A stretch of 64,000 nucleotides of DNA from Candidatus Saccharimonadota bacterium (GTDB taxonomy: Bacteria; Patescibacteriota; Saccharimonadia; Saccharimonadales; JAXHNE01). Under the pieces are notes generated by a model. The model saw only the letters and a program-made list of their open reading frames with translations. It searched no databases and was not told where the DNA came from. Below are positions 4,492 to 59,254 of the stretch, piece after piece. The first letter of the stretch is position 1. Every line of letters begins with the position of its first letter. The DNA is taken from the NCBI GenBank assembly GCA_034520885.1, contig JAXHNE010000005.1, forward strand, positions 13,748 through 77,747. The letters are read 5' to 3'. The position numbers and the translations under genes were made by a program.

Positions 4492-4580
4492 GTAACTAAG
4501 TATAAAGTCAAAAGTTTATAAAGTTACAAGTTTTCCTGTCACGAAGACAGTTTTTTACTTGCCACTTTACACTTTAAAAC
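4492..4580. repeat. Cargo-less heptamer-periodic imperfect inverted repeat filling the rpmH-rnpA spacer
   Basis: The left arm reads aagtata aagtcaa aagttta taaagtt acaagtt. The apex is a hairpin ctgtc-acgaa-gacag. The right arm reads acttgcc acttta cacttta aaactta, i.e. NNNNctt words complementary to the aagNNNN words. It spans exactly from the rnpA start to the rpmH stop. Confidence 0.6.
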
Positions 4581-4718
4581 TTAAGCCGAGAGCTTGGCGC
4601 GGCTTTTATTGCGGCGGCGCTTGAGCACCGCTTTGCCCGCTTTGGAGGACATGCGGCTCATAAAACCGTGGCGGCGCGCGCGGCGGCGGGTTTTGGGTTG
4701 AAACGTTCTTTTTGGCAT
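4581..4718 (-). CDS. rpmH: 50S ribosomal protein L34
   Basis: Found by hand (45 aa, below the track cutoff): [45 protein letters not shown]. This is the classic L34 sequence at the head of the rpmH-rnpA operon. Confidence 0.9.
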
Positions 4719-5044: not shown

Positions 5045-6409
5045 GTGCAGGACAGTTTGTGGCAAGCGGTTTTGGGGGAGATCGAGCTATCGGTTTCGCG
5101 CGCCAGTTTCGTCACGTGGTTCAAGAACACTCGCCTGCTGCGCCGCAACGAAGAATTAATGGTCATTGGCGTTCCGAACGTCTTTATAAAGCAGCAATTG
5201 GAGCAAAAGTATAATTCTTTGGTGTTGGACATCTTAAAAAAGAACGGGGTCGACTCGCTCAAAGTGGAGTATAAGATAAACTCCTCCATTACCCCGAAAA
5301 AGAAAGAAAACGACGAGGAAGAAACGGTGGTGCGCCGCGCCGCCGGTACCGTGAAAAAAACCAAACCTTCGTCGGCACTTACCCACAACTACCGCCAAGG
5401 CATTAACGAACGCTACACTTTTGAAAACTTTATCGTGGGGTCGGCCAACGAGCTGGCTTACGCCGCTTGCCAGGCGGTGGCGCAAAATCCGGGCTCCAAA
5501 TACAATCCGTTGTTTTTGTACGGCGGCGTGGGGATCGGAAAAACCCACCTGATCCAGGCGGTCGGCAACGAAATCCTCAAAGCCCGGCCCTCCTCCCGGG
5601 TGGTGTATATTTCTACCGAGCAGTTCGTGCAGGAATTCCTGGACGCCATTCGCTACAAAAAGAATACCGATTTTGCCGGCCACTACCGCAGCGCGGACGT
5701 GTTGATCGTAGACGATATCCAGTTCATCGCCGGCAAGGAAAAAACCCAAGAAGAATTCTTCCACACCTTTAACGCCCTGCACCAGGCCAATAAACAGATA
5801 ATTATTAGCAGCGATAAGCCGCCGCGGGATATCCCGACACTGGAAGAGCGGCTGCAATCACGTTTTGCCTGGGGGATGTCGATTGACATGCAAAACCCCG
5901 ATTACGAAACGCGCTGCGCGATCGTGACCGCCAAAGCCCAATCCCACGACGCTACGCTAGCGCCGGACGTAGTGGAATTTTTGGCCAATTTAATACAGAC
6001 CAACATCCGTGAGCTGGAAGGCGCGCTTAATCAACTACTCGCCTTTTGTGAAATGCGCGGGCTGGAGCCGGAAATCGGGATCGCCAAATCCTTGCTGAGC
6101 GGAAAATCTTCCCGCCCCAAACACGTCAGCGCCAAACAAATCATTGAGCGGTGCGCCAAACACTTTAACGTGGAGGTAGAAGACGTGCTCGGCCCCAAGC
6201 GCGACAAAGACATCGTGGTGCCGCGGCAAATCGCTATGTACATGCTGCGTAGTGAATTGCATTTGAGTTTTCCCAAAATCGCCCGGGAGCTTGGCCGTAA
6301 AGACCACACCACCGCGATTCATTCGGTCGAAAAAATCGAAAAGGCGTCCGGTTTGGATCCGGATCTTAAAACGGCGCTTTCCGATATTAAGGAGCGGTTG
6401 TATGCGTAG
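5045..6409 (+). CDS. dnaA: Chromosomal replication initiator DnaA
   Basis: AAA+ Walker A LFLYGGVGIGKTHL, Walker B LIVDDIQF, and the C-terminal DNA-binding domain (PRQIAMYMLR...HTTAIHSV). The start is set at GTG 5045, with GGGAG 6 nt upstream, giving VQDSLWQAVLGEI.... The track ORF begins at 4949 with an implausible extension. Confidence 0.9.
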   Translation: MQDSLWQAVLGEIELSVSRASFVTWFKNTRLLRRNEELMVIGVPNVFIKQQLEQKYNSLVLDILKKNGVDSLKVEYKINSSITPKKKENDEEETVVRRAAGTVKKTKPSSALTHNYRQGINERYTFENFIVGSANELAYAACQAVAQNPGSKYNPLFLYGGVGIGKTHLIQAVGNEILKARPSSRVVYISTEQFVQEFLDAIRYKKNTDFAGHYRSADVLIVDDIQFIAGKEKTQEEFFHTFNALHQANKQIIISSDKPPRDIPTLEERLQSRFAWGMSIDMQNPDYETRCAIVTAKAQSHDATLAPDVVEFLANLIQTNIRELEGALNQLLAFCEMRGLEPEIGIAKSLLSGKSSRPKHVSAKQIIERCAKHFNVEVEDVLGPKRDKDIVVPRQIAMYMLRSELHLSFPKIARELGRKDHTTAIHSVEKIEKASGLDPDLKTALSDIKERLYA

Positions 6410-6597
6410 TTTTGGAAGGTGGAAGATGGTAGGTGGAAGATGGAATTCATATTTTAGTACTTGGTTTTTGGCAAGTGGTCGTGAAAGTCTACTACTGGGT
6501 ATGCGTAAGTTTGGAAGGTGGAAGATGGTAGGTGGAAGATGGCGGTTGGGTGCTAACACTCTTTACTCTTTGCTCTTTGCTCTTTGCTCACACCTGT
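6400..6597. repeat. 44-bp direct repeat including the last dnaA codons, plus heptamer tracts
   Basis: gtatgcgta-N2-tttggaaggtggaagatggtaggtggaagatgg occurs at 6400-6443 and 6499-6542 (2 mismatches). The first copy contains the dnaA codons TAT GCG TAG. The internal words are ggaaggt ggaagat ggtaggt ggaagat (period 7). They are followed at 6568-6597 by ctcttta ctctttg ctctttg ctctttg ctcac. Confidence 0.8.
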
Positions 6598-6944
6598 GGG
6601 TGGCGTGTGGAGAAATCGTTGGAAAAGCTGTTCGTAAGGTTCGTGGGTTTTACACAAATACACAGCGCGCACTAAAAACATCATTTATTCACGTACGTTT
6701 TACACGGGTCCGTGCACAGTTTTTGTACTCACTTTTTCACAGGAATTTTACGAATTCTTCCCTGTTATTTGCTTTTGTACACATCTCCCACTGCCCCTAT
6801 AACGACTACTACTTATATAAACTAGTTAGAAGAAAGGTTTAAAAATGAATCCTATAAAACCGGCTCCAGAAAAAGTAAGGACAGGAAGTTCAACACTACA
6901 TTACAACCCAGGCATAACAATAAAACCAAAGGAGGTTTAACGGA

Positions 6945-8039
6945 ATGAAGTTGCAAGTTACCCAGGAAAATTTCGCCAAGGCGCTCGCCAGTGTGGCACG
7001 AACAGCAAGCTCTAAAAGCACCCTGCCCATTCTTTCCAACGTACTACTAAAAACCGCCGGGAATCGTTTACGCGTAGCGGCTACTAATTTAGATATCGGC
7101 ATTACGCATAACATTGGTTCCAAGATTAGCCAAGAAGGATCAATTACCGTTCCCGCCCGGCTTACGCAGGATTTCGTGAGTAGTCTCCCGGGCGAAGTGA
7201 TCGATCTGGAGCTGGAAGAAAACAAGCTGCACATTTCCACCGAAAAATACCAATCCACGATTAATGGTGTCGGCGCCGAGGATTTCCCGGTAATGCCGGC
7301 GATCAGCAACGGGTCTTCAATAAAAATTGACGCTCTTACCCTGAAAGAAGCGCTTTCGCAGGTGATCGTGGCGGCCAGTAACGACGAAGCCCGCCCGGTG
7401 CTTACCGGAATATTTATGCACGCGCACGAAGGAAATCTGTATTTCGTGGCCACGGACAGTTACCGCCTAGCGGAACGAAAAGTGATGCCGCTCAAACAAG
7501 ACGTTCGTTTACTGGTGCCTTCCAACGCCATGCAAGACTTACTGCGGGTGATTCCCGACGACACCGAAACCGTGGAAATTTTTTACGATGACCAGCAAGT
7601 AAGTTTCGTGGCCGGTGACGTGGAACTGGTGACACGCATGATCGACGGCGAATACCCCAACTACCGCAACCTTATCCCCGCCAAGTTCGAACACACCGCG
7701 ACCGTGGAGCGTTCCGAGTTCATTAATATCACTAAAGTATCCAGTTTGTTCGCCCGGGAAAGTGCCGGGAGCGTGACGTTGACGACGGACGAAAAAGCCA
7801 AGGAGTTGAGTATTACCTCGGTTGCCTCGCAGGTGGGCGACAACACCGCGGCGGCCAGCGCCAAAATTTACGGCGAGGGCGCGGCGATCACCCTTAATTC
7901 CCGCTACCTACTGGACGCGTTGAACGTGTTCCATGGCGCGGAAACCACCCTGTCGTTTAACAGTAAATTGGACGCCGCCCAGCTTTCCGACCCCAAAAAC
8001 AAGGACTATACTCATATTGTAATGCCGCTGAAGTCCTAG
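6945..8039 (+). CDS. dnaN: DNA polymerase III beta sliding clamp
   Basis: 364 aa with GGAGG upstream. Typical DnaN sequence (MKLQVTQENFAKAL...; ...YTHIVMPLKS) and dnaA-dnaN-recF synteny. Confidence 0.95.
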   Translation: MKLQVTQENFAKALASVARTASSKSTLPILSNVLLKTAGNRLRVAATNLDIGITHNIGSKISQEGSITVPARLTQDFVSSLPGEVIDLELEENKLHISTEKYQSTINGVGAEDFPVMPAISNGSSIKIDALTLKEALSQVIVAASNDEARPVLTGIFMHAHEGNLYFVATDSYRLAERKVMPLKQDVRLLVPSNAMQDLLRVIPDDTETVEIFYDDQQVSFVAGDVELVTRMIDGEYPNYRNLIPAKFEHTATVERSEFINITKVSSLFARESAGSVTLTTDEKAKELSITSVASQVGDNTAAASAKIYGEGAAITLNSRYLLDALNVFHGAETTLSFNSKLDAAQLSDPKNKDYTHIVMPLKS

Positions 8040-8473
8040 ACTTCAGCAAGTTGAAAGTGCAAAGCTTAAAGACTAAAGTTTTAGTATGAAGATAAATTCG
8101 TTCGAAGATATATTGGCTTGGAAAAAAGCCAAAGACCTTACGGTGGCGGTGTATAAAACCACCAAAAGCAACAAAGACAATGGCTTCAACAGCCAACTAC
8201 AAAGAGCCGCGGTGTCGATAATGAATAATATTGCTGAGGGGTTTGAGAGACAAAGCAACAAAGAGTTTAAAAAGTTTTTATATATAGCGAAGGGTTCTTG
8301 TGGTGAAGTGAGGTCAATGTTGCGGCTCGGCCAAAGCTTAGAGACGATAAACGAAGATTCCGGCAAGATTTTAATTGACCAGTCAATCGAGATTTCCAAA
8401 CTATTGTCAGGATTAATAAAGAAACTATGAAAACTTTCTACTTTATAAACTTTAAGAACTTTAAACTAAACGC
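8040..8473 (+). mobile_element. Putative heptamer-armed cassette 1 carrying a four-helix-bundle gene
   Basis: The left arm (8040-8085) is built of aagNNNN heptamers: aagttga aagtgca aagctta aagacta aagtttt. The right arm (8431-8473) is built of the complementary NNNNctt words: aaacttt ctacttt ...aactt taagaactt. The cassette begins 1 nt after the dnaN stop and ends 1 nt before the recF ATG. Confidence 0.55.
8086..8430 (+). CDS. Four-helix-bundle protein (23S rRNA intervening-sequence protein / Avd-like family)
   Basis: 114 aa. Family motif QLQRAAVSIMNNIAEGFERQSNKEFKKFLYIAKGSCGEVRSML. Three further paralogs lie in this window. Confidence 0.85.
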   Translation: MKINSFEDILAWKKAKDLTVAVYKTTKSNKDNGFNSQLQRAAVSIMNNIAEGFERQSNKEFKKFLYIAKGSCGEVRSMLRLGQSLETINEDSGKILIDQSIEISKLLSGLIKKL

Positions 8474-9526
8474 ATGATTTCAACATTGAGCCTCAAGCAA
8501 TTCAGGTCTTATCATGACGCTTCATTTGAGTTTGAGCCCGGGGTCAACATCATCGTCGGGCCGAATGCCAGCGGGAAGACGAATTTACTGGAGGCGATTT
8601 TGGTGTTAGCCAACGGGAGGTCGTATCGCGCCAAAGACCGGGAGTTACTGCGAACCGGCCAAGAATGGGCACGTTTGGACGCGCTCGCGGATAAAACGCC
8701 GCGCACGCTTAAACTGCAAACCAAAGCCGATAGCGCGCGGGTGGAAAAGGTTTTGGAGGTGGACGGCGTAGCCAAAAAACGCCTTACACTCCAGGACACG
8801 GTACCGGTGGTTTTGTTCGAACCCACCGACTTGCAACTCTTGACTGGTTCCCCCGCCCGGCGGCGAAGCTTTTTGGATACGCTCCTGAGCCGCAGCGAGC
8901 CGGATTTCGCCCGGCAACTACGGATTTACGAACGCAGCCTCGCGCAGCGCAATACGCTGCTTAAAACCGGTCATATGAGCAAGGACGAGCTGTTCGTGTG
9001 GAACGTGCGGCTTAGTGAATCCGGCGGTAAAATTATTGCGTCGCGCGCGGAGCTAATCAAGCGAATGAACACGGAGATAAACGGCCATTATAAAGACGTC
9101 GCGCACGAGGACAAACACATCACCGTGGCTTACCAAACCGACGTGAGCGCGCATCACGGGACGCAGTTAATGGAGTTGCTGGAAAAAAACATAAAACTGG
9201 ACGAAAAACGGGGGTTTACCAGCGTGGGACCGCACCGAGATGACATGTTGGTGGAGTTCGAAGGGCGGCCAGTGACCGAAACCGCTTCCCGCGGGGAGGT
9301 GCGCACCCTGGTGCTGGGGTTCAAAATGCTGGAACTTTCCATTATTGAAGCGTCACGCGGGCAAAAACCGCTCTTGCTACTGGACGACGTTTTTAGCGAA
9401 CTGGACGGCTCCCGCCGCAAAGCGCTAACGGATTTTTTGAAAGATCACCAAACCTTCATCACCACCACCGACGCCGACGTCGTCGTAGACCACTTCATGA
9501 AAAAAACCAACGTCATCGCGCTTTAG
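8474..9526 (+). CDS. recF: DNA replication and repair protein RecF
   Basis: Walker A GPNASGKTNLLEAI, an SMC-like signature, and Walker B LLLLDDVFSELD. Confidence 0.95.
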   Translation: MISTLSLKQFRSYHDASFEFEPGVNIIVGPNASGKTNLLEAILVLANGRSYRAKDRELLRTGQEWARLDALADKTPRTLKLQTKADSARVEKVLEVDGVAKKRLTLQDTVPVVLFEPTDLQLLTGSPARRRSFLDTLLSRSEPDFARQLRIYERSLAQRNTLLKTGHMSKDELFVWNVRLSESGGKIIASRAELIKRMNTEINGHYKDVAHEDKHITVAYQTDVSAHHGTQLMELLEKNIKLDEKRGFTSVGPHRDDMLVEFEGRPVTETASRGEVRTLVLGFKMLELSIIEASRGQKPLLLLDDVFSELDGSRRKALTDFLKDHQTFITTTDADVVVDHFMKKTNVIAL

Positions 9527-11059: not shown

Positions 11060-12197
11060 TAATCGACCAGTGCCACGGTTCAGAAGGCAGGTTTTTTAAG
11101 CTGGTGTTGTCGCGTAAAAGTATAAAGCATGGATGGCTTCTACTGCTAATTGTGCTGCCATTACACGTAAAGTCAACAGCACTACCCCGTTCATGATTCG
11201 ATCTACCAGGGATTGCCGTAGCAATCCTACAGCTACCAGGAGGGGCGGAATACACGTCAGGACAACCGTTCTTGACGCGCAACTCTTCTTGGCGCTGTAC
11301 GGATCTCCAACCCCAACCACTCATGTTGAGTCCTTCGTTGTTCGCCAGGTTCACAACCCTCTCAACCTCTTCGGCGATACACGGGTGGACACGTATGCCG
11401 ACTGCCGAAACTGTTTGAGATTCCTCTACGGGTTCAGCCGGGCAGCCATTCTCATCTAACGCAACCGGGCCACCACCCGATTCTCCCGAACAAGTGGATA
11501 CCGAAACGTTTGAAACGCCTTCGACAGCATTAGTCCCGGATCCGAATTCCTGCAGCCAGGCGAGCGCTTGTGAGTGTCTAACCGGGCGGGTTCTTTCTAT
11601 GTGGGCAGGATTTTCATATTCCTCAAGAAAAATATCAGTCGCCTCAATATAGTCCTCCGTAGCCTTAATTGGTTCAAGAGTCGAAGACTTGTAGTCATCA
11701 CTTGTAAGTTCAGTCCACAAGTAGTCAAGTTGCACACCGAGGGGTTCGGTGGGTGGAACACCTCGTTCGGCATACAATTCCCGCAAACCTTGTTTGCGAG
11801 GAGGATGTGTCCACTGAACCAACCCGTAACCTGGCTGCCCTTTGCTGTTTTGATCCGGTGGTACCGTATCAGATCTGTGGGGCGGGTCGCTAAAAGCAAA
11901 CTCAACGACACGAGGATCCCAGGTGCCCGCTGACTCACTTTCGATATTACCCATAATACCCGCGACCTGAGCGGGGGTAAGCCCCTTTGATATAAGGAAA
12001 TTCCAAACCTTTTCCGGATTCTCCGAGCCGGTAAGGATGGTGGCTCCTTCACTGCAAGTACGCGAGTCCGGATCGTAGAAAGGAGTATATAGGTTTTCCC
12101 TGTCCGTGTCGGTGAGTGCGTAGGCCATCGAAGATATAAAAATTTGCCCCAAAAAAGCGAATAAAATAAATAAACAAAAAATACTGCGCCTATTCAT
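11049..12197 (-). CDS. Bifunctional cell-wall hydrolase (lysozyme-like domain + M15/VanY-type peptidase), functionally VirB1/CwlT-like
   Basis: The start is set at ATG 12197 (MNRRSIFCLFILFAFLGQIFISSMAYA, a signal peptide). It overlaps the upstream stop by 8 nt. GIMGNIESESAG is the phage-tail-lysozyme-type motif. The C-terminal PGRSNHERGSAVDF matches the SxHxxGxAxD zinc site of M15 peptidases. Confidence 0.8.
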   Translation of the reverse strand: MNRRSIFCLFILFAFLGQIFISSMAYALTDTDRENLYTPFYDPDSRTCSEGATILTGSENPEKVWNFLISKGLTPAQVAGIMGNIESESAGTWDPRVVEFAFSDPPHRSDTVPPDQNSKGQPGYGLVQWTHPPRKQGLRELYAERGVPPTEPLGVQLDYLWTELTSDDYKSSTLEPIKATEDYIEATDIFLEEYENPAHIERTRPVRHSQALAWLQEFGSGTNAVEGVSNVSVSTCSGESGGGPVALDENGCPAEPVEESQTVSAVGIRVHPCIAEEVERVVNLANNEGLNMSGWGWRSVQRQEELRVKNGCPDVYSAPPGSCRIATAIPGRSNHERGSAVDFTCNGSTISSRSHPCFILLRDNTSLKNLPSEPWHWSINGG

Positions 12198-14763
12198 TGG
12201 TAAAGTACGCTCCTGCTGCTTCGACCGCCGCTTCCTCCAGGAGGCAAGGGTTGGCAATCCTTTTTTCTTCCAATCCAGTGTAGGGGTTTTCATTTCCTTC
12301 GCCGGACTCTTCCCATCGTTCTTTGTACTCTTCGCAGCTTTCTTCGGTTAATTGATCGGGGTTTCGAGTAAAGGCGGGATCATTCTGGCTATAGCCGTAC
12401 CGTGTAATTCCAAAGGCGTTTATTGCCAGTTGCTGTTCGGCCAGTGAATCCGCCCCCACACTGCCGGTAAAAGCATTCCTTAAGTTCGCCTTGAAACCAT
12501 TCATTATTCCGAAGATCGCGCCAGTGCCCTGAGTTTGACCAATGGGTATAGAACCAACCAGGCCGCTGGCGAGTGATTGAGGGTGCTCAAGGCTTGCGAG
12601 GCGCGTAAGTAAGTCTTCTTTACGGAAGTTTTGACGTTGTTGCTCCAACTGTTCCTTCGTTATTTTAGCGTACTCTTCGTCGCTAATAACCGGGGCGCCC
12701 AGACCGTAAGGTTGGCCGGATTCGTCATATCCGCCCTCGGCGAATTCCGCCGATGTCACATCAGCGCCCGCTATGACTCCGTCCAACTTGACACGCGCCG
12801 GGCTGTCTTCTTGTACGGGGAGCGGAAAGACGTAACTAAATACCCATGTAAGAAAGGTGTCGAACAGGTTTTTAGCCCACTCTTCGAATGTATCGTAACC
12901 ACGAATATTGGATACCAAACCAAAGACGACACTTCCTATTGAGCTCAGGACGAAGTCTACAGCACCAACTATCCTTTCAAGGAAAAAGCGATAATCTGCT
13001 GGGCAAGGAGCGTTAATTTCTACAACAATTTCAACGCCTGGTGGACTTGTTACGCAGTCATCCAACGTATTTACTGCGCTGGCCACTCTATCGACCACCG
13101 GATTGTCCCGAAGCTTCTCTACCTCGAATCTATCCCCCGGGCCTCTAACAATCTTCTTTTCATCGCACACGTGATCACCTCTGTCTATCGGTTCTCCGTC
13201 CTGACAAGTGTATTCCTCGTCGGATTGTGCATGCACCGTTGAACTTCCGAGGAAGGCGACGTCATTGTTTTGTTGATTGGAATAGGCGCGCCACAATTTA
13301 CTTTTTTCAGCACCATCAAGGTCACTCAAAGCCGCTCCAAGTTCATTCAAGTCTACTTCGTGAGATTTTGTCTCGTCATTCAATGAACGAAAACCAGTAT
13401 AAATTTCTCTGTATTGTTCAGCAGCCAAAGCCGAATGGAACCGACTAAGTGCATCGTCATCTATAGCCCGGTCAAAATCATCAGCCAAAAGAGCCATGGA
13501 CGCAACAAAGTATAATTGTCCTGCCACAGGAATTTTAGTCGCTGCAAGCCGAGCCGAACTATCCTTCATGACCTTTGCCAACAATTTTTCGAGGACATAA
13601 CTGCTCACAGTTCCCCTGCTTCTACCAAGAGGTTTTCCATTCTCGTCTGTTCCACGAAAATGCTTTATAATGTCATTTCTGTCTTCCTCGGAAAGGTTGT
13701 TTCTGTCAAGGTCTCTTTCCCGCAAGTCGTTGGGGCCACAAGAGTTTGCGCGGCTTCCGATGTTCCTGTCGATAGCGCAGGTAAATATGAGGCCATACTT
13801 ACTAGAAAAAGGATATACAAACCTGCTTACGAATCTGTACTTATATCTCGTTCGTGCGCTTGCACTCCGGTCTTCCAGGTTATCTCTCGTGTCGCAAGCC
13901 CAAAAACACCAAAGCCTGACGTCGTGTTTTCGCTGGAGGTATTTACGGATTGAGCGGCGCTCCATGACCTGATAGATCTTTGTTTCTTGCCGTAAAAAAC
14001 GGTTCATTTCACGGCCGAAATCCCTCCTCCCCCTGTCGGTTACGATATTCCTGAATTTTCCGTCAACGTCCCTGCTTAAGTCGATTTCACTCCTGAGTTT
14101 GGTATCGTATAGGCGATGTCGAGTAATGCCGGTATCACTGTCTTGTTCCGTTCTGATTTCTATACCGTAGTTATCAAATAACTTTTGCTCGACTCGTGCG
14201 TCGCGCCATTGATTGAACAAGTTACCAGCGATACCTGCCCCCCTATAGGTATATCTGCAGTCGAGAGACACTGTCTGAGTACAGGTATTGAGCTGAGTCA
14301 TATAGGACACCATATATCTTTCCATGAGATGCCCCGCCCGGGCTTCAACGGCGTTGGCGGCAACAGCAAACGCTTTTTGGTTGATATTCTGCATAAAGTG
14401 TTCGAGCTTGAGTGCTGGGAGGGTCAATACCGATATGAGCACACCCCCGCCCACGAAAAGGCCGATAACTCCTCCTCCGGCTTTTCTGCGGCGGGTCCAG
14501 AACTTTTTCTTATTGGCACCACTTCCGTCATCTTTAAATAAGCTTTGCTCTTCTTCGCCTCCAGTGTCTTTACGAGGTTCAGCACCTTCTTCCTTTTCAG
14601 CGATTTCGTTAGGCGAGAGTGATCTTTGGCCGATATCCTCCGCCGCTCCGCTGTGGGCTTCGCGGTCCATGGCCTCTTCTTCATCGGGAGAAATACCGGT
14701 AATACCCCTTAATTCATCATTCGAGGTCCCCTTTTTTTGTCGTTGATCGTCGTAGACTGGCAT
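12190..14763 (-). CDS. Large T4SS-associated membrane protein, function unknown
   Basis: 857 aa. Acidic cytoplasmic N-terminus, a TM segment (GGGVIGLFVGGGVLISVLTLPAL) and a large exported region with a second hydrophobic patch. Lies between the virB4-like gene and the hydrolase. No family recognised. Confidence 0.6.
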   Translation of the reverse strand: MPVYDDQRQKKGTSNDELRGITGISPDEEEAMDREAHSGAAEDIGQRSLSPNEIAEKEEGAEPRKDTGGEEEQSLFKDDGSGANKKKFWTRRRKAGGGVIGLFVGGGVLISVLTLPALKLEHFMQNINQKAFAVAANAVEARAGHLMERYMVSYMTQLNTCTQTVSLDCRYTYRGAGIAGNLFNQWRDARVEQKLFDNYGIEIRTEQDSDTGITRHRLYDTKLRSEIDLSRDVDGKFRNIVTDRGRRDFGREMNRFLRQETKIYQVMERRSIRKYLQRKHDVRLWCFWACDTRDNLEDRSASARTRYKYRFVSRFVYPFSSKYGLIFTCAIDRNIGSRANSCGPNDLRERDLDRNNLSEEDRNDIIKHFRGTDENGKPLGRSRGTVSSYVLEKLLAKVMKDSSARLAATKIPVAGQLYFVASMALLADDFDRAIDDDALSRFHSALAAEQYREIYTGFRSLNDETKSHEVDLNELGAALSDLDGAEKSKLWRAYSNQQNNDVAFLGSSTVHAQSDEEYTCQDGEPIDRGDHVCDEKKIVRGPGDRFEVEKLRDNPVVDRVASAVNTLDDCVTSPPGVEIVVEINAPCPADYRFFLERIVGAVDFVLSSIGSVVFGLVSNIRGYDTFEEWAKNLFDTFLTWVFSYVFPLPVQEDSPARVKLDGVIAGADVTSAEFAEGGYDESGQPYGLGAPVISDEEYAKITKEQLEQQRQNFRKEDLLTRLASLEHPQSLASGLVGSIPIGQTQGTGAIFGIMNGFKANLRNAFTGSVGADSLAEQQLAINAFGITRYGYSQNDPAFTRNPDQLTEESCEEYKERWEESGEGNENPYTGLEEKRIANPCLLEEAAVEAAGAYFTNE

Positions 14764-15155
14764 TATTGAGTCCTGATTTTTGAGTTTTGTGTCTTGAGTG
14801 ATTTAAGAAGCCCGCTCAGTATCTTGGATATTTCATCGGTATTCTCCACCAGTCTATAATAGTCCTCAGTCTTGAAGTACTCAAGACTTCTTCCGAGTTC
14901 AAGCATAGATTCAACTTCGGCAGCAGAACCTTTGGCAATCAAGAGAAAGTTGGAAAAAGCCTTTGGGCTTCTTCTGGAGTGGCCTTCGGCTATATTGTTC
15001 ATAATCGAGACGGACGCTCTTTGTATCTGATCACGGAAGGAAAAGTCTTTGTTATTTTGCAGTAGTCCATATATTTCAACGCGTAAATGACGAGCTTTTT
15101 GCCAAGCCTTGATGTCTCGAAACGACTGCCCGGTGTTTTTGTTTACTTTGCTCAT
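14763..15155 (-). CDS. Four-helix-bundle protein (23S rRNA IVS protein / Avd-like family)
   Basis: 130 aa. Motif QIQRASVSIMNNIAEGHSRRSPKAFSNFLLIAKGSAAEVESML. Its stop shares 1 nt with the ATG of the downstream 857-aa gene (TAATG). Confidence 0.85.
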   Translation of the reverse strand: MSKVNKNTGQSFRDIKAWQKARHLRVEIYGLLQNNKDFSFRDQIQRASVSIMNNIAEGHSRRSPKAFSNFLLIAKGSAAEVESMLELGRSLEYFKTEDYYRLVENTDEISKILSGLLKSLKTQNSKIRTQ

Positions 15156-15196
15156 GGCTTTTGCTCAATACTCATCACTCACTACTCACAACTCAT
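14763..15196 (-). mobile_element. Putative heptamer-armed cassette 2 carrying a four-helix-bundle gene
   Basis: The right arm (15156-15196) reads gctcaat actcatc actcact actcaca actcatt (actcNNN). The left arm (14766-14810) reads ttgagtc ctgattt ttgagtt ttgtgtc ttgagtg (NNNgagt, the complement). The arm cores atcactca...aactca are shared. The left arm supplies the last codons of the gene (KSLKTQNSKIRTQ). Confidence 0.55.
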
Positions 15197-17122
15197 TTAT
15201 GAGCCGGGGCTTAGGCGGTTGTTCAGGTCTATTGTACCTTGTTCGCCGGATATTTCGCCCTGTTGTTCTATTTGGCTTACTTGTTCCGGATTGGTGGTGA
15301 TCAAATTGGTTTCCGTGGGGCTGGCGGTAACCTGAATATGTACGTGATTTTGCCCGGCAAAGAATAACCCTTGACCCACCGGGAATTGGCTGAGGCGTTT
15401 CTTTTCCTCGCTAGTGAGTTTGAATACATGAGAAAGTGTGTCCACGGCGGTGGAGGATTGTTTGAGCAGGATTTGCATGGAGGCGTTGGCCACGATTGCC
15501 CGCCCCATACGGCTACCCATAAAGTCTTCCACGTCTTGTGAAATGGTGGTGATACCCAGGTTGTATTTACGGGCCCGTTTGGCCAGGCTGAACATGAAAT
15601 TGGCGGAATCTTCGTACTTCATGAGCTGCCAGGCTTCGTCGACCACCAGCATACGACGCTTTTGGTCGGCTTTGGTTTTGTTCCAGATAAAGTTAAGTAC
15701 GATATACATGGCCACCGGGCGCAGTTCGTCTTCCAGGTCACGGATATTAAATACCACCATCGGGTTGTTGATGTCGATGTTAGACGGTTGCGAGAAGATA
15801 CCCGCGAACGTACCGGTGGTGTATTTGCGAAGCCGTTGCGCCAATTGCGGCCCATTTCCGCCCATATGTAACAGCGTGTCGTAAAGATCGTTAATGGTCG
15901 GCGGCGGCGAAGTGTGCGTGAGCGGATCGTTGGTGATTCCGGCTTTGGCATAGGTTTCGATCAGTGCGGCGTCCAGATCGGCCTCTTCAGCGGGGCTGAG
16001 CGCCGGAGCAATGCTGCCCTGGGCGCCTTCTTGTTGAGCCATTTGGGCCTGGGCGCCGCCCATCATCAGCCGTAAGAGCCCGTGCAAAGTAATCAGGTTG
16101 CTGCGCAGGGCGTTATCGGCCTCCTCTTCGTCGGCAACTTTCGGCAAATCAAAAGGGTTTATCCTGGTCGGTGAATTCAAACTTAAGCGAACGTAGGCTC
16201 CGCCGACCGCTTCGGCCATGCGCTGGTATTCGTTTTCCGGGTCGATAATGAACACCTCGGTGCCGAACATCATGCTACGCAAGGCTTCCAGCTTAACGGT
16301 AAAACTTTTACCGGCGCCGGACTTGGCAAACACCACGGAATTGCCGTTTTCCAAGGAAAAGCGATCAAAAATCACCAACCCGGAGTTGTGCATGTTAATG
16401 CCGTAAAGAATGCCGTTATCTTGCGTAAGATCGGCCGAAGTGAACGGGAAGCTGGTGCTTAAAGCGCCGGTGTTCAGGTTGCGGCGAATCTGCAGTTGAT
16501 CCGTAAATTGCGGCACGGTGCTGTTTAAGCCTTGCTCTTGCTGTGAAGTGGCCGGTTTGGAGTAAATTAATTGCTGGCCAAGCATGGATTCCACTTTTTG
16601 GGCGACGTATTCCAGCTCGTCTTCCGATCCCCCGTAAATCGTAAAGTACAGCCCGAAGCGGAAGAAGCGTTCTTCGCCCACCTGTAGTTTGTCGCGCATT
16701 TCCTCGGCGTCCTGGATGGCGGCCTGGGTGCCCGGATCGCGAACCCGACCCTTCTCGGCAGTGATTTGCATATCGGCCTCCAAGCGGGACACCTTTTTCT
16801 TGAGGTTATCCAGCACTACCTGGCTTTCGACTGGATAAATGTAAATTGAAAGATCAATCACTTCGTCCAGATTGACCATACTACTTAACCAACCGGTAAA
16901 AATTTGCCGCGGATACCCATACACGTAGTAGGTGCGGGCGTAGCGGGTGCCGATTTGAAAGTCCTTATTGTTAAAGACAATGGAGCTGGGGGCAATAAAG
17001 TCACGGAGCGCGCCAACACCCTTCTGGAAAGCGGCTTGGACTTCTTGCTCCTCACGGGCTTTTTGCTGCTGCGCCAGCGTCACCGGATCGGTCTGGTCGT
17101 TCTTTTTACCAAACAAACTCAC
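15197..17122 (-). CDS. virB4: VirB4/TrbE/ConE-family type IV secretion ATPase
   Basis: 641 aa. Walker A VFAKSGAGKSFT and Walker B MLVVDEAWQLM. The N-terminal domain is typical of VirB4 (GTRYARTYYVYGYPRQIFTGWL). GTG start. Confidence 0.9.
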   Translation of the reverse strand: MSLFGKKNDQTDPVTLAQQQKAREEQEVQAAFQKGVGALRDFIAPSSIVFNNKDFQIGTRYARTYYVYGYPRQIFTGWLSSMVNLDEVIDLSIYIYPVESQVVLDNLKKKVSRLEADMQITAEKGRVRDPGTQAAIQDAEEMRDKLQVGEERFFRFGLYFTIYGGSEDELEYVAQKVESMLGQQLIYSKPATSQQEQGLNSTVPQFTDQLQIRRNLNTGALSTSFPFTSADLTQDNGILYGINMHNSGLVIFDRFSLENGNSVVFAKSGAGKSFTVKLEALRSMMFGTEVFIIDPENEYQRMAEAVGGAYVRLSLNSPTRINPFDLPKVADEEEADNALRSNLITLHGLLRLMMGGAQAQMAQQEGAQGSIAPALSPAEEADLDAALIETYAKAGITNDPLTHTSPPPTINDLYDTLLHMGGNGPQLAQRLRKYTTGTFAGIFSQPSNIDINNPMVVFNIRDLEDELRPVAMYIVLNFIWNKTKADQKRRMLVVDEAWQLMKYEDSANFMFSLAKRARKYNLGITTISQDVEDFMGSRMGRAIVANASMQILLKQSSTAVDTLSHVFKLTSEEKKRLSQFPVGQGLFFAGQNHVHIQVTASPTETNLITTNPEQVSQIEQQGEISGEQGTIDLNNRLSPGS

Positions 17123-17144
17123 AAGACAACCCCCCGGGACTCTA

Positions 17145-17234
17145 AAGTCTGAAATCTGAAATGTGAAACCAGAAACAAATCTGAAATCTGAAATGTGAAA
17201 CCAGAAACAAATCTGAAATCTGAAATGTGAAACT
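17145..17234. repeat. 31-bp tandem repeat (about 2.8 copies) built of heptamers
   Basis: aaatctgaaatctgaaatgtgaaaccagaaac is repeated head-to-tail at 17146, 17177 and 17208 (the last copy is partial). It sits between the virB4 start and the stop of the four-helix-bundle gene. Confidence 0.9.
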
Positions 17235-17636
17235 TCATGATGAATTCCTCACAATCGCTCCGAGAATATTCATTAATTCGGTTGCTTCCTTCTGCAGTCT
17301 CGACTGTTCTTTACGATTTAATTCATTTGCTGTAATAAGTTCTAACCAGTAAATTGTTTCTCTCGCTTCTTTTTTTGCGATCTTAACCCGCATAATAAAA
17401 TCTTTCTTGCTTAAGGATTGATTTGCCTCCAAGTAGTTCGCACCAACGGAACCGGAAGAGCGAACGAGTTGCTTGCCGTCCTCTCTGTTACCGGCATTTT
17501 TAGGAAGTGCCCCCACGAATAAACGAACGTCTTTTGCGAACTTTTTAGTTCTATCTTCAAGATCAAAACGTTTCTGATTTCGTGCTTCGTGCTTGTTTCT
17601 GATTTCGTGCTTCGTGCTTCGTGCTTCAGTTTTCAT
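17235..17636 (-). CDS. Four-helix-bundle protein (23S rRNA IVS protein / Avd-like family), subtype B
   Basis: The start is set at ATG 17636, in an ATGA overlap with the upstream stop. Motifs RFDLEDRTKKFAKDV and QLVRSSGSVGANYLEANQSLSKKDFIMRVKIAKKEARET. The track ORF's 60-aa N-terminal extension overlaps the upstream gene and is rejected. Confidence 0.8.
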   Translation of the reverse strand: MKTEARSTKHEIRNKHEARNQKRFDLEDRTKKFAKDVRLFVGALPKNAGNREDGKQLVRSSGSVGANYLEANQSLSKKDFIMRVKIAKKEARETIYWLELITANELNRKEQSRLQKEATELMNILGAIVRNSS

Positions 17637-18547
17637 GAATATATATCCTTTTCCAGCTGTGGCTGGGCGGCTTGGCCTTCGCCCTTGGTGACAACTGGCG
17701 CTGTCATGGTGTTGAAGTCTTTCAGTTGCTGGCGGGTCGCGGTGTCCGGATTGTAGGTGTCGTAGTACAGTTCGATCAGCTCTTGCGTGTCCAGCGGGAT
17801 TCCCTGGATGCCGCATTGCTGCAACCCGTTTAACACCGCTTGTACGCGGTTACGCAGTTCGTCCTTGGCTTTGTTGAGCGTGGCTTCGTTGATGGTGACG
17901 TGCACGTCCTTGGGCTTGAAAATATGGGTCAGCCCCTGGAAGAATCCCCTACTACTTTCCACGGCCTGCTTTAGATCACCTTCCGGAAAGTACGGAATTA
18001 CCACGTAAAAATTCTTGTCCATAATGTTGGTTTGCAGGGAAAGGTTGTCGATGTAGGTAATGTAATCCTCCATTAACAGTGATAGCAGCATATTGTCATG
18101 CTCGCCACGGATTTTATCCAGCTTTTGGATATAGGGGGTCATGTCCACTTTGCGTGATCGCAGGAAAATTTGTATCGGAAAATATAAGGAGTTTAAAAAT
18201 CCCTGGTAACTGTATTCCACCGCATCCCGTTCTTCCGGGCTCATGAGATCGAAGTTGATGGAGCGGACGGCCACTACGGAGCGAAAGGAGCCGTCGTTCA
18301 TAATCACGATGCCATCGCGCACTTCGGCAATCTGTAAGGAGTTCTGGGTGCTATTAGGGTTGCCGGCCGGAGGTTGTTCCTTAGATTTTTGAGGTGTTGG
18401 TTGCTGGCCTTGAGATTGTTGGGGTGGCGGCTGTTGCCCCGGCGCTTGTTGTTGGCCGGGGTTTTGGGGCGCGTAGGCCTGCCCCGGCTGCGATTGAGCG
18501 GGAGGCTGCTGGGGATTGTTTTGTTGGCCGGGGTTTTGGGGATTCAT
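17633..18547 (-). CDS. T4SS-associated protein with a Gln/Pro-rich N-terminus, function unknown
   Basis: 304 aa. The first ~70 aa are low complexity (NPQNPGQQNNPQQPPAQ...). The segment DGSFRSVVAVRSINFDLMSPEERDAVEYSYQGFLNSLYFPIQIF is reminiscent of the N-terminal region of VirB4-type proteins, but this resemblance is weak and judged only by eye. Confidence 0.55.
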   Translation of the reverse strand: MNPQNPGQQNNPQQPPAQSQPGQAYAPQNPGQQQAPGQQPPPQQSQGQQPTPQKSKEQPPAGNPNSTQNSLQIAEVRDGIVIMNDGSFRSVVAVRSINFDLMSPEERDAVEYSYQGFLNSLYFPIQIFLRSRKVDMTPYIQKLDKIRGEHDNMLLSLLMEDYITYIDNLSLQTNIMDKNFYVVIPYFPEGDLKQAVESSRGFFQGLTHIFKPKDVHVTINEATLNKAKDELRNRVQAVLNGLQQCGIQGIPLDTQELIELYYDTYNPDTATRQQLKDFNTMTAPVVTKGEGQAAQPQLEKDIYS

Positions 18548-18802
18548 GTAAAACTAAACTCCACGTTTCAAATATCAATTTCCAGGGAATGGCTAAACAT
18601 TAACGTTTTCCCTGTCAATTTTACTTGTGATCGACCGTAATATCAAAACTATCCGATGACTTTCATTCATAAAAACCTCCGGATCGTAAGGAACTGATCG
18701 CACATTGGAGTTTGTGATTTGAGATTTAAGTTCTTCACGCCACCCTAAAAAGGTTATTCTTATATGCGGTTAATTATAGAGGAATTTTGTGCTTTGCACA
18801 AA

Positions 18803-19287
18803 ATAGCTGAAAGCTAAATGCTAAGAGCTCAAAGCTGCGCAATTTCCAATTTCCAATTTCTAATTTTCATTCAATTCTCAACCGCCATTTTTTAAACTAG
18901 TGGTAATTTTTTGGAAGATTAATACCAACTCATGAACTTCTTGCCATAATGATCGTAAATCAGCTTTTTTCGAAGGCGTTGCGGTACTAAGCATACGGAG
19001 CCAATGCTGTGTTTCTTGAGCCTCTTTTTTACAGATATGAATTTTATTACGGAAATCTTTTTTAGAGCTGGCCCCGTTCGCTTCCATATAGTTTGCTCCA
19101 ATGCTTGTCGAGGAACGAACCAACTGATTAATCAAAGGCTTGTTTATATTATTTTGTTTAATAACTTTACAGAGCTTAATTACATCTTCCCCAAACCTTG
19201 ATGTTCTTTCCTCTAAATCAAATTTATTGTCTTTTTGAGCCATTGAAGATTGATTGTAAATTGTAAAATTGAAAACTAAAAATTAAC
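18803..19287 (-). mobile_element. Putative heptamer-armed cassette 4 carrying a four-helix-bundle gene
   Basis: The left flank begins with agctgaa agctaaa tgctaag agctcaa agctgcg, then caatttc caatttc caatttc taatttt cattcaa. The right flank (19244-19287) reads ttgaaga ttgattg taaattg taaaatt gaaaact, whose reverse complement gives the caattt-type words. Confidence 0.55.
18878..19243 (-). CDS. Four-helix-bundle protein (23S rRNA IVS protein / Avd-like family), subtype B
   Basis: 121 aa. Motifs KFDLEERTSRFGEDV and QLVRSSTSIGANYMEANGASSKKDFRNKIHICKKEAQET. Confidence 0.85.
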   Translation of the reverse strand: MAQKDNKFDLEERTSRFGEDVIKLCKVIKQNNINKPLINQLVRSSTSIGANYMEANGASSKKDFRNKIHICKKEAQETQHWLRMLSTATPSKKADLRSLWQEVHELVLIFQKITTSLKNGG

Positions 19288-19345
19288 TTCTTGAATGATT
19301 CGATAGGCATACTGACAGCATAACGTATCAGCATTCAGCTGGTGG

Positions 19346-20464
19346 TCAGTGCAAACTGACCACGACTTCGTCGGGGTGGTCGTCGTCCTTGTTTTTGTTG
19401 GCTTGGCGGGCAATGGTTTCCACGTTCAGGTCGTTGTTATTGGCCAGTTGGGTGACTGACGGATCGGGTTTTTTCGGTTCCGGCTTGGCGGGTTCTTTTT
19501 GGTTCGTTGGTTGTTGATGAGGGGTGGATGGTGCCGCGTCTTTTTGCTTTTTTTGTTCGGAAAGCGGGAGCACGGTTTTTTGGTGCGTGGTGTAGGTGGA
19601 CTTTTTAGCTTGGGAGTCGTGAATTTTATTAAGTAAAGCTTCTTCATCGGCCTTGGAGAGGTTTTGCTCGCCCGGCTCCGGTTTGTCGTCAGTGTGCGGC
19701 GCAACGGTGGTGCCCTGCCCGGTTGCCATACCGGGTGGCGTTTTGCTAGGGTCGTTTTGGTGCATGAACCAAAAATCTTGCGGCGTTTGTTGGTTTTGCT
19801 GATTTTCTTGCGGGGCGGCTTGTGGGTGCGACATTCGTTGTTTTATCTGGTCTTTATGCGTGGCTTCGGATTGGGTAATCATTTTATCGATGTTTTTGGC
19901 GGTGGGATTGTTGTTTTCATCGAGCACGTCTTCTTTTACCCCAACATCGGTGGCAATTTGGGTGCCTACGGTTTCCGTTCCGGCGACCAACCGGTCGGAA
20001 TTGTCCACTTGTTGGCCGCCAAATGGCGAACCGCCCAATTGTTTTACCGCCCAGCCGCGGCTATCCACGGTTTGCGCCAGGGCGGAAAGCCGGCTGCGGA
20101 CTTGGGTTTGATCCAGTTCATCGGTAAGGTGCCGTTCCACTTTTTTCGGAACCGTAATAGTAACCAGTTCTTTTATGCCGGCTTGATCCCAAATGCGCTT
20201 ACGCGGCTTAAAGAAAAAGCGGATTTTTGCCAGCAACCATGTTTCCGTGGGTTGCGCTTTGCTCCACGGGAACCCGAGTACCCCGAAAAACACGGCCGGC
20301 GGTAGCAAAAATATCGCAAAAAATGCCGCCCCTTGAGTGAAAGTAAAAAAAATGAGGTACAAACACACGGCGGTAATTGCAAAGTAAATAAATTGCTTGA
20401 GCGTGAGCGGCCCGATGAGTTTGTCCTCGGCCTCGATATCTTGGATCACTTTGTGCTGCGCCAT
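19346..20464 (-). CDS. PrgI/VirB3-like T4SS membrane protein with a long disordered C-terminal extension
   Basis: The N-terminus VIQDIEAEDKLIGPLTLKQFIYFAITAVCLYLIFF followed by two TM helices is the PrgI-family pattern. The C-terminal ~200 aa are Q/P/K-rich. Confidence 0.7.
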   Translation of the reverse strand: MAQHKVIQDIEAEDKLIGPLTLKQFIYFAITAVCLYLIFFTFTQGAAFFAIFLLPPAVFFGVLGFPWSKAQPTETWLLAKIRFFFKPRKRIWDQAGIKELVTITVPKKVERHLTDELDQTQVRSRLSALAQTVDSRGWAVKQLGGSPFGGQQVDNSDRLVAGTETVGTQIATDVGVKEDVLDENNNPTAKNIDKMITQSEATHKDQIKQRMSHPQAAPQENQQNQQTPQDFWFMHQNDPSKTPPGMATGQGTTVAPHTDDKPEPGEQNLSKADEEALLNKIHDSQAKKSTYTTHQKTVLPLSEQKKQKDAAPSTPHQQPTNQKEPAKPEPKKPDPSVTQLANNNDLNVETIARQANKNKDDDHPDEVVVSLH

Positions 20465-43650: not shown

Positions 43651-43832
43651 TACTTTTTACTTATTACTTTCCCCATCTTCTATCTTCCATCTTCTATCTA
43701 CCAAATTCCAACTTCCATCTTCCAACTCCTAGCACCTAAACCCTATCCATGAACTATGAACCCAGAACTCTTTCCTCAATCCTCAATCCCCGATCTCCTA
43801 TCTACTATCTACCAACTTCCACCTTCTATCTG
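43651..43832. repeat. About 180-bp orphan heptamer-periodic pyrimidine-rich tract
   Basis: The tract reads ccatctt ctatctt ccatctt ctatcta ccaaatt ccaactt ccatctt ccaactc ctagcac ctaaacc ctatcca tgaacta tgaaccc agaactc tttcctc aatcctc aatcccc gatctcc tatctac tatctac caacttc caccttc. No complementary arm lies nearby. Confidence 0.85.
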
Positions 43833-43851
43833 CGCCTCTGTTAAATGATAA

Positions 43852-43889
43852 TAATACTAGAATTAATACTAGTATTAATTCTAGTATTA
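43852..43889. repeat. Perfect 38-bp AT-rich palindrome overlapping the valS stop codon (possible bidirectional terminator)
   Basis: taatactagaattaatact|agtattaattctagtatta. The two halves are exact reverse complements, and 43887-43889 is the valS TAA. Confidence 0.8.
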
Positions 43890-55333: not shown

Positions 55334-55600
55334 ATGGCCGTAAACATCAAGCCACTTGGCGAGTACGTGGTGGCGCAAACCGAAGAAGCGCCCAGCAAAA
55401 CCGCCAGCGGGTTGTATATCCCCAAAGAAGCGCAGGAAAAACCCAAGATTTCCAAGGTTTTGGCCGTGGGCAAGGACGTCAAAGAGGTAAAAGTGGGCGA
55501 CCGCATTATTTACGGCGGTTTCAGCAACACCGAAGTCAACCATGACGGCGAAGATTACATGCTTATTAAGGAAGAAAACATCTACGCGGTAGTTAAATAG
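55334..55600 (+). CDS. groES: Co-chaperonin GroES
   Basis: 88 aa. MAVNIKPLGEYVVAQTEEAPSKTASGLYIP... AGGAGG lies upstream. Confidence 0.95.
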   Translation: MAVNIKPLGEYVVAQTEEAPSKTASGLYIPKEAQEKPKISKVLAVGKDVKEVKVGDRIIYGGFSNTEVNHDGEDYMLIKEENIYAVVK

Positions 55601-55657
55601 CTAAAAGCTTAAAGCCGAAAGCTCTGAGCTTATGGCTCTTGGCTCTTGGCTCAAGCG
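55598..55657 (+). repeat. Cargo-less heptamer-periodic hairpin in the groES-groEL spacer
   Basis: The tract reads tagctaa aagctta aagccga aagctct gagctta tggctct tggctct tggctca agc. The A-rich left half pairs with the T-rich right half (about 16 of 22 positions). This includes G-U pairs that form only in the sense-strand RNA. Confidence 0.7.
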
Positions 55658-58460: not shown

Positions 58461-58835
58461 ATGATGAGTGCAGCTTCACAGCAAGAGATACAAACCATGC
58501 TTGACCAAATGCGTACGCGCATGCAAGATCGAATGGCCACGAGACAGGACGTGCAACGGGCGACGGATGACGCCAGGGACCGCATGATCAGTTACATGCA
58601 CGACTATTTGCAGCAAAACCAGCAACAGTTCGTACGGCAACTGGATGACCGGACGAAAACGTATAAATCGCAGATAACGAATCTGGAATACCGGATCCAG
58701 TCGCTGGAACAAGAAATTCGTAACGCTAACCAGATACTAAACCAAATGGCCCAAAAGCAACAAAGCGTTATTATTCCGCATGTTCAGGAGGCGGTGAGTA
58801 ATCAACATAACTACCGCTATGTCCAGGAAGGCTAG
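58461..58835 (+). CDS. Hypothetical coiled-coil protein (Q-rich)
   Basis: 124-aa ORF with GGAGG upstream and a heptad-like composition. No family recognised. Confidence 0.5.
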   Translation: MMSAASQQEIQTMLDQMRTRMQDRMATRQDVQRATDDARDRMISYMHDYLQQNQQQFVRQLDDRTKTYKSQITNLEYRIQSLEQEIRNANQILNQMAQKQQSVIIPHVQEAVSNQHNYRYVQEG

Positions 58836-59186: not shown

Positions 59187-59254
59187 TTTTTGCCGCTGGG
59201 CAAGCCCAGCAGCAAATCCTGATAGCAAGTAGTAAGCAATCAGATTACGCGCTA

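Follow-up and report, generated by a model that had tools for sequence, protein, structure and literature searches.

What fills the 434 nt that separate dnaN from recF in a Saccharimonadales (TM7) bacterium, and how does its host live with it? The locus was analyzed within a 64-kb window (the whole stretch of DNA under study, whose positions serve as coordinates throughout). Our answer, which we hold to be probably correct, is that the spacer is one copy of a widespread cassette, made of a PF05635 gene flanked by AAAGT/ACTTT arrays, which has the anatomy of the intervening sequences (IVS) known from 23S rRNA and is lodged between two cistrons. The features of the locus are as follows.

6945-8039, plus strand: dnaN (DNA polymerase III beta), with three DNA_pol3_beta domains (Pfam) and the stop codon TAG at 8037-8039
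8040-8085, plus strand: left arm, with five AAAG(T)-core heptamers, as seen in the sequence and in the orthologue alignment
8051-8079, plus strand: predicted promoter-like site in the left arm (TTGAAA, 17 nt, TAAAGT)
8086-8430, plus strand: cassette open reading frame (ORF) of 114 aa, PF05635 23S_rRNA_IVP / TIGR02436 four-helix-bundle, from Pfam, NCBIfam, and PDB matches
8431-8467, plus strand: right arm, with ACTTT cores and 87% identity among orthologues
8462-8473, plus strand: TAAACT (8462-8467) followed by aaacgc, directly 5' of the recF ATG, with the geometry TAnnnT + 6 nt + ATG
8474-9526, plus strand: recF, with an SMC_N domain (Pfam) and the start codon ATG at 8474

Identity and anatomy of the cassette

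Both ends of the spacer are fixed by full-length alignment of ~70 related loci, in which the alignment of DnaN extends to residue 364 and that of RecF begins at residue 1. Together with homology, this confirms the coordinates of an earlier note on this DNA (hereafter the original prediction), i.e. dnaN TAG at 8037-8039, recF ATG at 8474, and a spacer of 434 nt. The spacer is a single unit composed of a left arm, an ORF, and a right arm, with a GC content of 38-41% versus ~55% in its flanks.

The 114-aa ORF (8086-8430) is the only one of the spacer. It matches PF05635, named "23S rRNA-intervening sequence protein" (Pfam, E = 3e-33), NCBIfam TIGR02436, "four helix bundle protein" (E = 1.4e-32), and the pentameric four-helix-bundle structure PDB 2GSC (E = 9e-12). 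Homologues of the protein number more than 7,850 at E <= 1e-10, and those that are 60-70% identical occur in Flavobacteriales, Saprospirales, Bacteroidales, and other Patescibacteria. This recognizable PF05635 gene, which went unmentioned in the original prediction, is the key to the identity of the element. No match to the PADLOC defence models was found, nor were relatives of the cassette found in the viral contigs searched.

The same fold is familiar from another setting. Avd, the accessory protein of diversity-generating retroelements (DGR), is small and basic, forms pentamers of four-helix bundles, and belongs to the same family or to one close to it. PF05635 is named in a review of these retroelements (PMC10053308). 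Unlike in a DGR, however, neither a reverse transcriptase nor a template/variable repeat pair is found beside the cassette between dnaN and recF (cassette 1), the neighbors of which are dnaN and recF themselves. Considering the lack of both components and of a PADLOC match, we rejected the possibility that cassette 1 is part of a DGR.

The arms consist of short phased motifs. In the left arm, heptamers start at 8047, 8054, 8061, 8068, and 8075 (CAAGTTG, AAAGTGC, AAAGCTT, AAAGACT, and AAAGTTT). In the right arm, ACTTT cores start at 8433, 8440, 8449, and 8458, with a spacing of 7, 9, and 9 nt (TRF), and ACTTT is the reverse complement of the left-arm core AAAGT. The window has a single occurrence of three phased ACTTT cores (8440-8462), versus 0.02 expected by chance. 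Among seven orthologous cassettes, the left and right arms are 76 and 87% identical, respectively, versus 61% for the ORF, so that the arms outscore the ORF in conservation although synonymous sites are saturated. On the other hand, identity falls to 59% in the ~7 nt after the dnaN stop codon (acttcag in the window copy, which is not conserved among orthologues) and to 56% in the ~11 nt before the recF ATG. The cassette was originally said to replace the spacer to the nucleotide. It does fill the spacer, but the exactness does not survive the alignment, as the conserved element stops short of both dnaN and recF because the edge nucleotides are poorly conserved among the seven orthologues when compared with the arms.

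The closest known system, judging by anatomy, is the ORF-bearing IVS of 23S rRNA, as in Leptospira and Coxiella burnetii, although the location in an rRNA helix is not shared. The IVS of C. burnetii is 428 nt long, encodes S23p, has a 28-bp terminal stem, and is excised by RNase III; three or four GACAGAT heptamers lie immediately 5' of its ATG, and its GC content is below that of the genome (PMC4990558). Cassette 1 resembles such elements in the family of its protein, its length (434 versus 428 nt), the tandem heptamers directly 5' of the ATG, the inverted-repeat ends, an ORF that reads in the same direction as the host transcript, a GC content below that of the host, and a sporadic presence among relatives (10/74 at its own site). 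It differs in lying between protein cistrons rather than in helix 9, 25, or 45 of 23S rRNA, and Rfam finds no rRNA in the window. In addition, its stem is weak and interrupted whereas that of C. burnetii is a near-perfect 28 bp, its excision is not needed for host function, and the ORF is intact in all the copies examined here whereas the C. burnetii ORF is decaying.

The dnaN-recF spacer is an insertion hotspot

The spacer was compared with that of 74 species-level Saccharimonadales relatives that have both dnaN and recF. In 56 of these 74 it is only 4-48 nt long (median ~20 nt), and in 10 it contains a PF05635 ORF. The same cassette type with the same arms is present at this position in six relatives (L010, L011, L012, L034, L038, and L065), and PF05635 cassettes with quite different arm motifs are present in L005, L014, L041, and L062; at least four arm and protein types are found in this one spacer. 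The two closest relatives, L171 (84% DnaN identity) and L172 (82%), carry a 46%-identical cassette with CTGTTGT/ACAACAG arms, and the next ones, L173 (80%), L001, and L002 (both 77%), have empty spacers of 17-18 nt. That the stretch is an insertion, as originally proposed, is therefore borne out by the short ancestral spacer and by the empty spacers of near relatives. An equally long but unrelated spacer in relatives, which would have spoken for an ancestral gene order, was not found. A profile search of every ORF in 80 loci of ~7 kb detected PF05635 genes only in the dnaN-recF spacer, and because they are found in no other spacer of these loci, the dnaN-recF spacer is a hotspot.

The cassettes at this position could instead derive from a small ancestral gene of the dnaA-dnaN-recF region, inherited vertically, lost in most relatives, and not mobile. 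The eight dnaN-recF cassettes of the cassette 1 protein subtype (c1-type; c2-type is the subtype of cassette 2 described below) do form a single clade, their synonymous sites are saturated, and a short motif adjoining the arm, gagcaagt, is common to several orthologues. We nevertheless consider this explanation very unlikely. Fifty-six of the 74 relatives have clean spacers of ~20 nt without a cassette, the closest relatives have a different cassette type or none, and the GC content of the cassette is 37-41% versus 48-56% for the flanks in all seven genomes. Moreover, the divergence of the cassette does not track that of its host, since L010 and L034 share 90% identity in DnaN and only 64% in the cassette, whereas the window copy and that of L065 share 64 and 68%, respectively. 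Finally, homologues that are 60-70% identical and have the same arms occupy unrelated sites in Bacteroidota and other Patescibacteria. The c1-type cassettes are scattered on the DnaN tree, yet those at dnaN-recF form one clade, which suggests one old acquisition at this position followed by many losses and replacements. Recent horizontal transfer of the window copy was also rejected, as third-position identity is 0.47 for the cassette, barely higher than the 0.40 of dnaN and the 0.42 of recF.

How recF may be expressed downstream of the cassette can be gauged from relatives that lack it. No Shine-Dalgarno (SD)-like motif precedes recF in the window copy, as the original prediction had noticed, but the cassette is not to blame. 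Only 3 of 51 cassette-free relatives have such a motif, and because cassette-free relatives mostly do without it too, the lack of an SD is ancestral rather than made by the cassette. By contrast, a TAnnnT motif ends 4-8 nt 5' of the recF ATG in 44 of the 51, and exactly 6 nt 5' in 32 of them, versus a chance expectation of ~0.03 per position. The motif often reads TACAAT or TATAGT in cassette-free Saccharimonadales, and the window copy keeps the geometry exactly (TAAACT at 8462-8467, 6 nt, ATG at 8474); TAAACT and aaacgc may be retained native spacer or may be contributed by the last arm unit. TAnnnT + 6 nt + ATG would be an arrangement of the leaderless-mRNA type, which points to a conserved leaderless-type promoter within the dnaN-recF junction of cassette-free Saccharimonadales. 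SD motifs are used elsewhere in the organism, as dnaN has a strong one (aaggagg, ~6931-6937).

The cassette ORF itself shows a similar layout, with its ATG 6 nt after TAAAGT and TTGAAA another 17 nt farther upstream. A consistent leaderless promoter in the left arm was not upheld, however, since this spacing is kept in only five of nine dnaN-recF orthologues, and we use it as a weak inference only.

A course of events that would account for these findings is that a promoter-poor 114-aa gene, bracketed on each side by 3-5 motif copies placed 7 or 9 nt apart, moved into an ancestral spacer of ~17-20 nt in Saccharimonadales, where cassettes would since have been gained, lost, and swapped. The cassette would be transcribed by read-through from dnaN and/or from TTGAAA-17-TAAAGT in the left arm, and recF would be expressed from the -10-like TAnnnT located 6 nt before its ATG, which the right end of the cassette keeps as TAAACT. 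The cassette would be tolerated because it is a self-contained sense cistron, interrupts no coding sequence, and recF needs no SD; its excision from RNA would not be required. As for the proposal that the element is very precisely targeted to gene boundaries, it is only partly right. The family is indeed found at boundaries of co-oriented cistrons, but whatever inserts into an ancestral spacer of ~17 nt will lie next to both genes.

Cross-phylum distribution, subtype-specific arms, and orientation bias

The cassette was retrieved in three further contexts: between dnaN and recF in another member of the Saccharimonadales, between an aminotransferase gene (sufS-like) and sufE in Flavobacteriales, and in an operon resembling those of type IV secretion systems (T4SS) in Minisyncoccia. 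In all three, AAAGT motifs are on the left, ACTTT motifs are on the right, and the arms reach all the way from the preceding stop codon to the ATG that follows. Scanning of metagenomes yielded 80 further c1-type cassettes, all with AAAGT/ACTTT arms, which typically have 3-4 cores per arm (range 0-6) at 7- or 9-nt spacing. Here, too, the spacer is often filled completely. These metagenomic cassettes are co-oriented with the upstream neighbor in 65 of 66 cases and with the downstream one in 58 of 68, at median distances of 55 and 43 nt, respectively, and only one of the 80 is located between dnaN and recF. The arm motif follows the protein, as c2-type proteins carry TGAGT/ACTC-type heptamers instead of AAAGT/ACTTT. 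Because two c2-type copies are anti-oriented, the orientation rule has exceptions. In all copies examined, the ORF is intact and its length is conserved.

Several pairs of cassettes that are more than 80% identical at the nucleotide level sit in unrelated flanks (L111/L131, L107/L113, L091/L111, and L102/L111). Their similarity ends at the arms, and the mobile unit is therefore arms plus ORF. Tandem or nested arrangements were also seen. In L131 (2846-2965), the first cassette is immediately followed by another AAAGT left arm and the degenerate beginning of a second cassette, and in L091 (1109-1228) the left arm of an intact cassette contains an ORF-less arm pair. At two pairs of orthologous metagenome sites, nucleotide conservation is higher in the cassette than in the host genes beside it (91 versus 78% identity in L096/L098; 84 versus 71-73% in L093/L143), which is the opposite of the dnaN-recF case in Saccharimonadales.

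Such a unit could be a non-autonomous DNA transposon, the arms being multi-site terminal inverted repeats (TIR) like those at the ends of Tn7 and Mu, with the recombinase encoded elsewhere, the four-helix-bundle gene as a passenger or accessory factor, and the ORF-less hairpins as derivatives comparable to miniature inverted-repeat transposable elements (MITE). We see this as possible but doubtful. It would fit the mobility of arms plus ORF as a unit, the >80% identical cassettes in unrelated contexts, the inverted, multi-copy arm motifs conserved in sequence, and the ORF-less elements that have kept the same arms at rpmH-rnpA in the window or c2-like arms in L003. In these respects (inverted ends built up from short repeated units, derivatives that keep these ends but lack the ORF, related copies in unrelated contexts), the cassettes do resemble MITE and multi-site-TIR transposons. 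They differ from them in that no transposase was found beside any of the ~100 copies examined, no target-site duplication is visible, and the arm motif is specific to the protein subtype, a pattern that one enzyme acting in trans would leave unexplained. In addition, the near-absolute co-orientation with the upstream gene (65/66) would be unusual for a transposon, and the viral contigs contained no relatives. A reverse transcriptase gene was not found, nor was an integrase gene called, beside the cassette in any retrieved context.

Two other kinds of element invite comparison. Like an integron cassette with its attC site, a PF05635 cassette is a small, largely promoterless single-gene unit with imperfect inverted repeats, oriented with upstream transcription. 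Unlike integron cassettes, PF05635 cassettes occur singly, dispersed in housekeeping and T4SS-like operons, without an attI array or integrase, and have repeats on both sides in the form of periodic arrays. An integron cassette was thus rejected as an explanation, on the grounds of this dispersal and of the absence of a called integrase in the retrieved contexts. Short tandem heptamers and hairpins in the intergenic spacers of operons are also characteristic of the heptanucleotide short tandemly repeated repetitive (STRR) sequences of cyanobacteria and of repetitive extragenic palindromes and bacterial interspersed mosaic elements (REP-BIME). The arrays described here differ from these in being complementary pairs around one gene family, with a motif that co-varies with the gene subtype.

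Because the arms are complementary, the cassette might act at the level of RNA, as an IVS does: RNase III would cut the arm stem in the dnaN-cassette-recF transcript, free the cassette RNA, split the dnaN mRNA from that of recF, and by this processing render the insertion harmless. The anatomy is like that of the rRNA IVS excised by RNase III (PMC4990558), and the minimum free energy (MFE) fold of 8030-8485 pairs both arms across the ORF. Strong stems are found elsewhere in the window (z = -4.4 for cassette 2, z = -3.6 for cassette 3, and -89 kcal/mol for a decayed remnant, all listed below), co-orientation with the upstream gene is strong, and folding is better on the sense strand for cassettes 3 and 4 and for those of L084 and L041. 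Cassette 1, however, has a weak arm duplex (-13.3 kcal/mol, z = -1.9, matched by 10 of 300 shuffles) in which the longest uninterrupted helix is ~7 bp, and it folds better on the antisense strand by 5.9 kcal/mol. Over 18 cassettes the comparison of sense and antisense arms is mixed, and no consistent G-U signature of the sense strand was found in these 18. For the seven orthologues, RNAalifold predicts a consensus arm helix of only 11 bp, in which covariation is slight (term -0.91) and the register is ambiguous because the arms are periodic; the conservation of the arms is thus one of sequence rather than of covarying pairs. Rfam, searched with gathering and E-value thresholds, returned only tRNAs and a spurious snoRNA match on repeats, with no family for the arms. 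The window contains no RNase III signature motif either, which is uninformative because the gene may lie elsewhere in the genome. A polycistronic mRNA does not need an intervening cistron to be removed. We thus regard cutting by RNase III as unlikely. The original prediction had offered removal or tolerance at the RNA level as the reason for harmlessness; given the weak stem and the mixed strand asymmetry, removal is not supported, and nothing needs removing because the cassette is a separate cistron.

Within the reading that we prefer, i.e. an IVS-type cassette lodged as an additional cistron, the conserved feature is the motif array and not an individually co-evolved stem. The possibility that each cassette keeps its own co-evolved stem was rejected, as the excess of cognate pairing is small and the window copy is unremarkable in this respect. 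The arrays would be the functional ends of the element, probably recognized by a protein and, most simply, by its own pentameric product. This guess is prompted by the subtype-specific motif, which is better conserved than the gene, and by the ORF-less derivatives that have the same arms. Taken further, and this we put forward only tentatively, PF05635 cassettes might be an unrecognized class of autonomous mobile element without a known recombinase, in which each pentamer subtype reads its own periodic arm motif. If so, the ~3-5 copies of AAAGT/ACTTT at 7-9 nt would provide roughly one copy per subunit, much as TRAP reads GAG repeats, and a protein-arm module would be spreading across phyla among operon spacers, rRNA helices, and even coding sequences. 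The ORF-less hairpins and heptamer arrays would then be its leftovers, and the 30-year-old puzzle of the origin of rRNA IVS a special case.

Several findings pull in the other direction. Cognate arms pair only slightly better than non-cognate ones (-20.8 versus -17.9 kcal/mol, p = 0.004; rank of the window copy, 0.43), and arm pairing may be a simple consequence of complementary motifs. Binding of the protein to the arms is something that we purely infer. The promoter-like spacing of the left arm is kept in just over half of the orthologues, as described above. No transposase, recombinase, or reverse transcriptase adjoins cassette 1, and comparison of filled with empty spacers showed neither a target-site duplication nor any residual similarity. 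Finally, the eight c1-type dnaN-recF cassettes are one clade among ~90 c1-type proteins and are saturated at synonymous sites, so the window copy may be an old, vertically inherited resident rather than a recent insertion.

The origin, mobility, and function of rRNA IVS and of their conserved ORF have been in question since the early 1990s. A 2024 survey still described the PF05635 domain as functionally uncharacterized and reported it from no setting other than rRNA insertions in bacteria of the candidate phyla radiation (CPR), which includes Patescibacteria (PMC11270868). In the literature that we searched, which excluded subscription journals, no description was found of such cassettes in mRNA or operon spacers. 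The element is an IVS-type cassette in mRNA spacers, governed by unexpectedly regular rules across the family: the arm motif tracks the protein subtype, orientation follows a strong rule, and certain spacers are occupied recurrently (e.g. dnaN-recF in Saccharimonadales). Across Patescibacteria and Bacteroidota, this type of element is found chiefly between ordinary protein-coding genes. What was an rRNA curiosity becomes a model that can be tested, that of a selfish module of protein plus repeats, for which the AAAGT/ACTTT arrays and the 114-aa protein are concrete sequences. The finding is also of use for annotation, as it accounts for many genes labeled "four helix bundle protein" and for the heptamer arrays of these small genomes, and long gaps in conserved CPR operons are often such cassettes.

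Other cassettes and heptamer arrays in the window

Besides cassette 1, the window contains the following elements.

4492-4581, minus strand: ORF-less hairpin with AAAGT/ACTTT arms, which fills the rpmH-rnpA spacer from stop codon to ATG (-28.6 kcal/mol, z = -3.1)
14763-15196, minus strand: cassette 2, with a 130-aa PF05635 ORF (14763-15155) and TGAGTnn/ACTCnnn heptamer arms (duplex z = -4.4)
17140-17636, minus strand: cassette 3, with a PF05635 ORF (17235-17636) and a right arm of 13 TCTGAAA units (duplex z = -3.6)
18800-19290, minus strand: cassette 4, with a 121-aa PF05635 ORF (18878-19243) and CAATTTn/AAATTGn arms, downstream of a PrgI-family gene
58825-59190, minus strand: decayed cassette, with 76-nt TAGAGGT/AACGTCT heptamer arms and a 31-aa PF05635 remnant (duplex -89 kcal/mol, z = -9.7)

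The rpmH-rnpA hairpin is capped by a small 5-bp hairpin (ctgtc-ttcgt-gacag) where the ORF would be. Another ORF-less element, the one with c2-like arms, is found in L003. In the decayed cassette at 58825-59190, the arms have outlived the gene.

Cassettes 4, 3, and 2 occupy three consecutive spacers of a T4SS-like operon (12190-20464, minus strand), the order of which is PrgI-family gene, 304-aa gene, TraG/VirB4-like ATPase gene, and 857-aa gene. The related genomes L169, L170, L168, and L087 carry cassettes at the same positions of this operon, sometimes in the opposite orientation. Cassette 2 is located between the TraG/VirB4-like ATPase gene and the 857-aa gene; its right arm falls within the 3'-terminal part of the ORF, the TAA of which overlaps the ATG of the next gene (TAATG, 14763-14765). 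In cassette 3, the ATG overlaps the upstream TGA (ATGA, 17633-17636), and the left-arm heptamers (GAAGCAC/GAAATCA) are probably translated as an N-terminal extension.

Heptamer arrays are also found away from complete cassettes. In the dnaA-dnaN spacer (6397-6590), a direct duplication of ~46 nt (6397-6445 and 6497-6543), which comprises the last ~12 nt of dnaA and a TGGAAGA block, is followed by 4.4 copies of CTCTTTG at 6559-6589. These arrays look like the remains of a further arm pair, located immediately 5' of the probable oriC region.

Arrays occur within a coding sequence as well. The essential gene tsaD (47543-48766, minus strand) is open over 407 aa and matches Pfam TsaD in two stretches (E = 6e-75). 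Its arrays at 48429-48554 and 48205-48255 encode two in-frame insertions, one of ~45 aa made of GTTGTCT/TCTGTAA units and one of ~20 aa made of AGCTnnn units. The GTTGTCT/TCTGTAA motif resembles the arms of the dnaN-recF cassettes of L171 and L172.

Further long heptamer arrays, with no adjacent PF05635 ORF, lie in spacers at 43651-43928 and 55594-55652. They consist of CCATCTT/CTATCTT, TCCTCAA, and ATCTACT units, a palindromic block of 3.3 copies of the 12-nt TAATACTAGTAT, and AGCTnnn followed by TGGCTCT.

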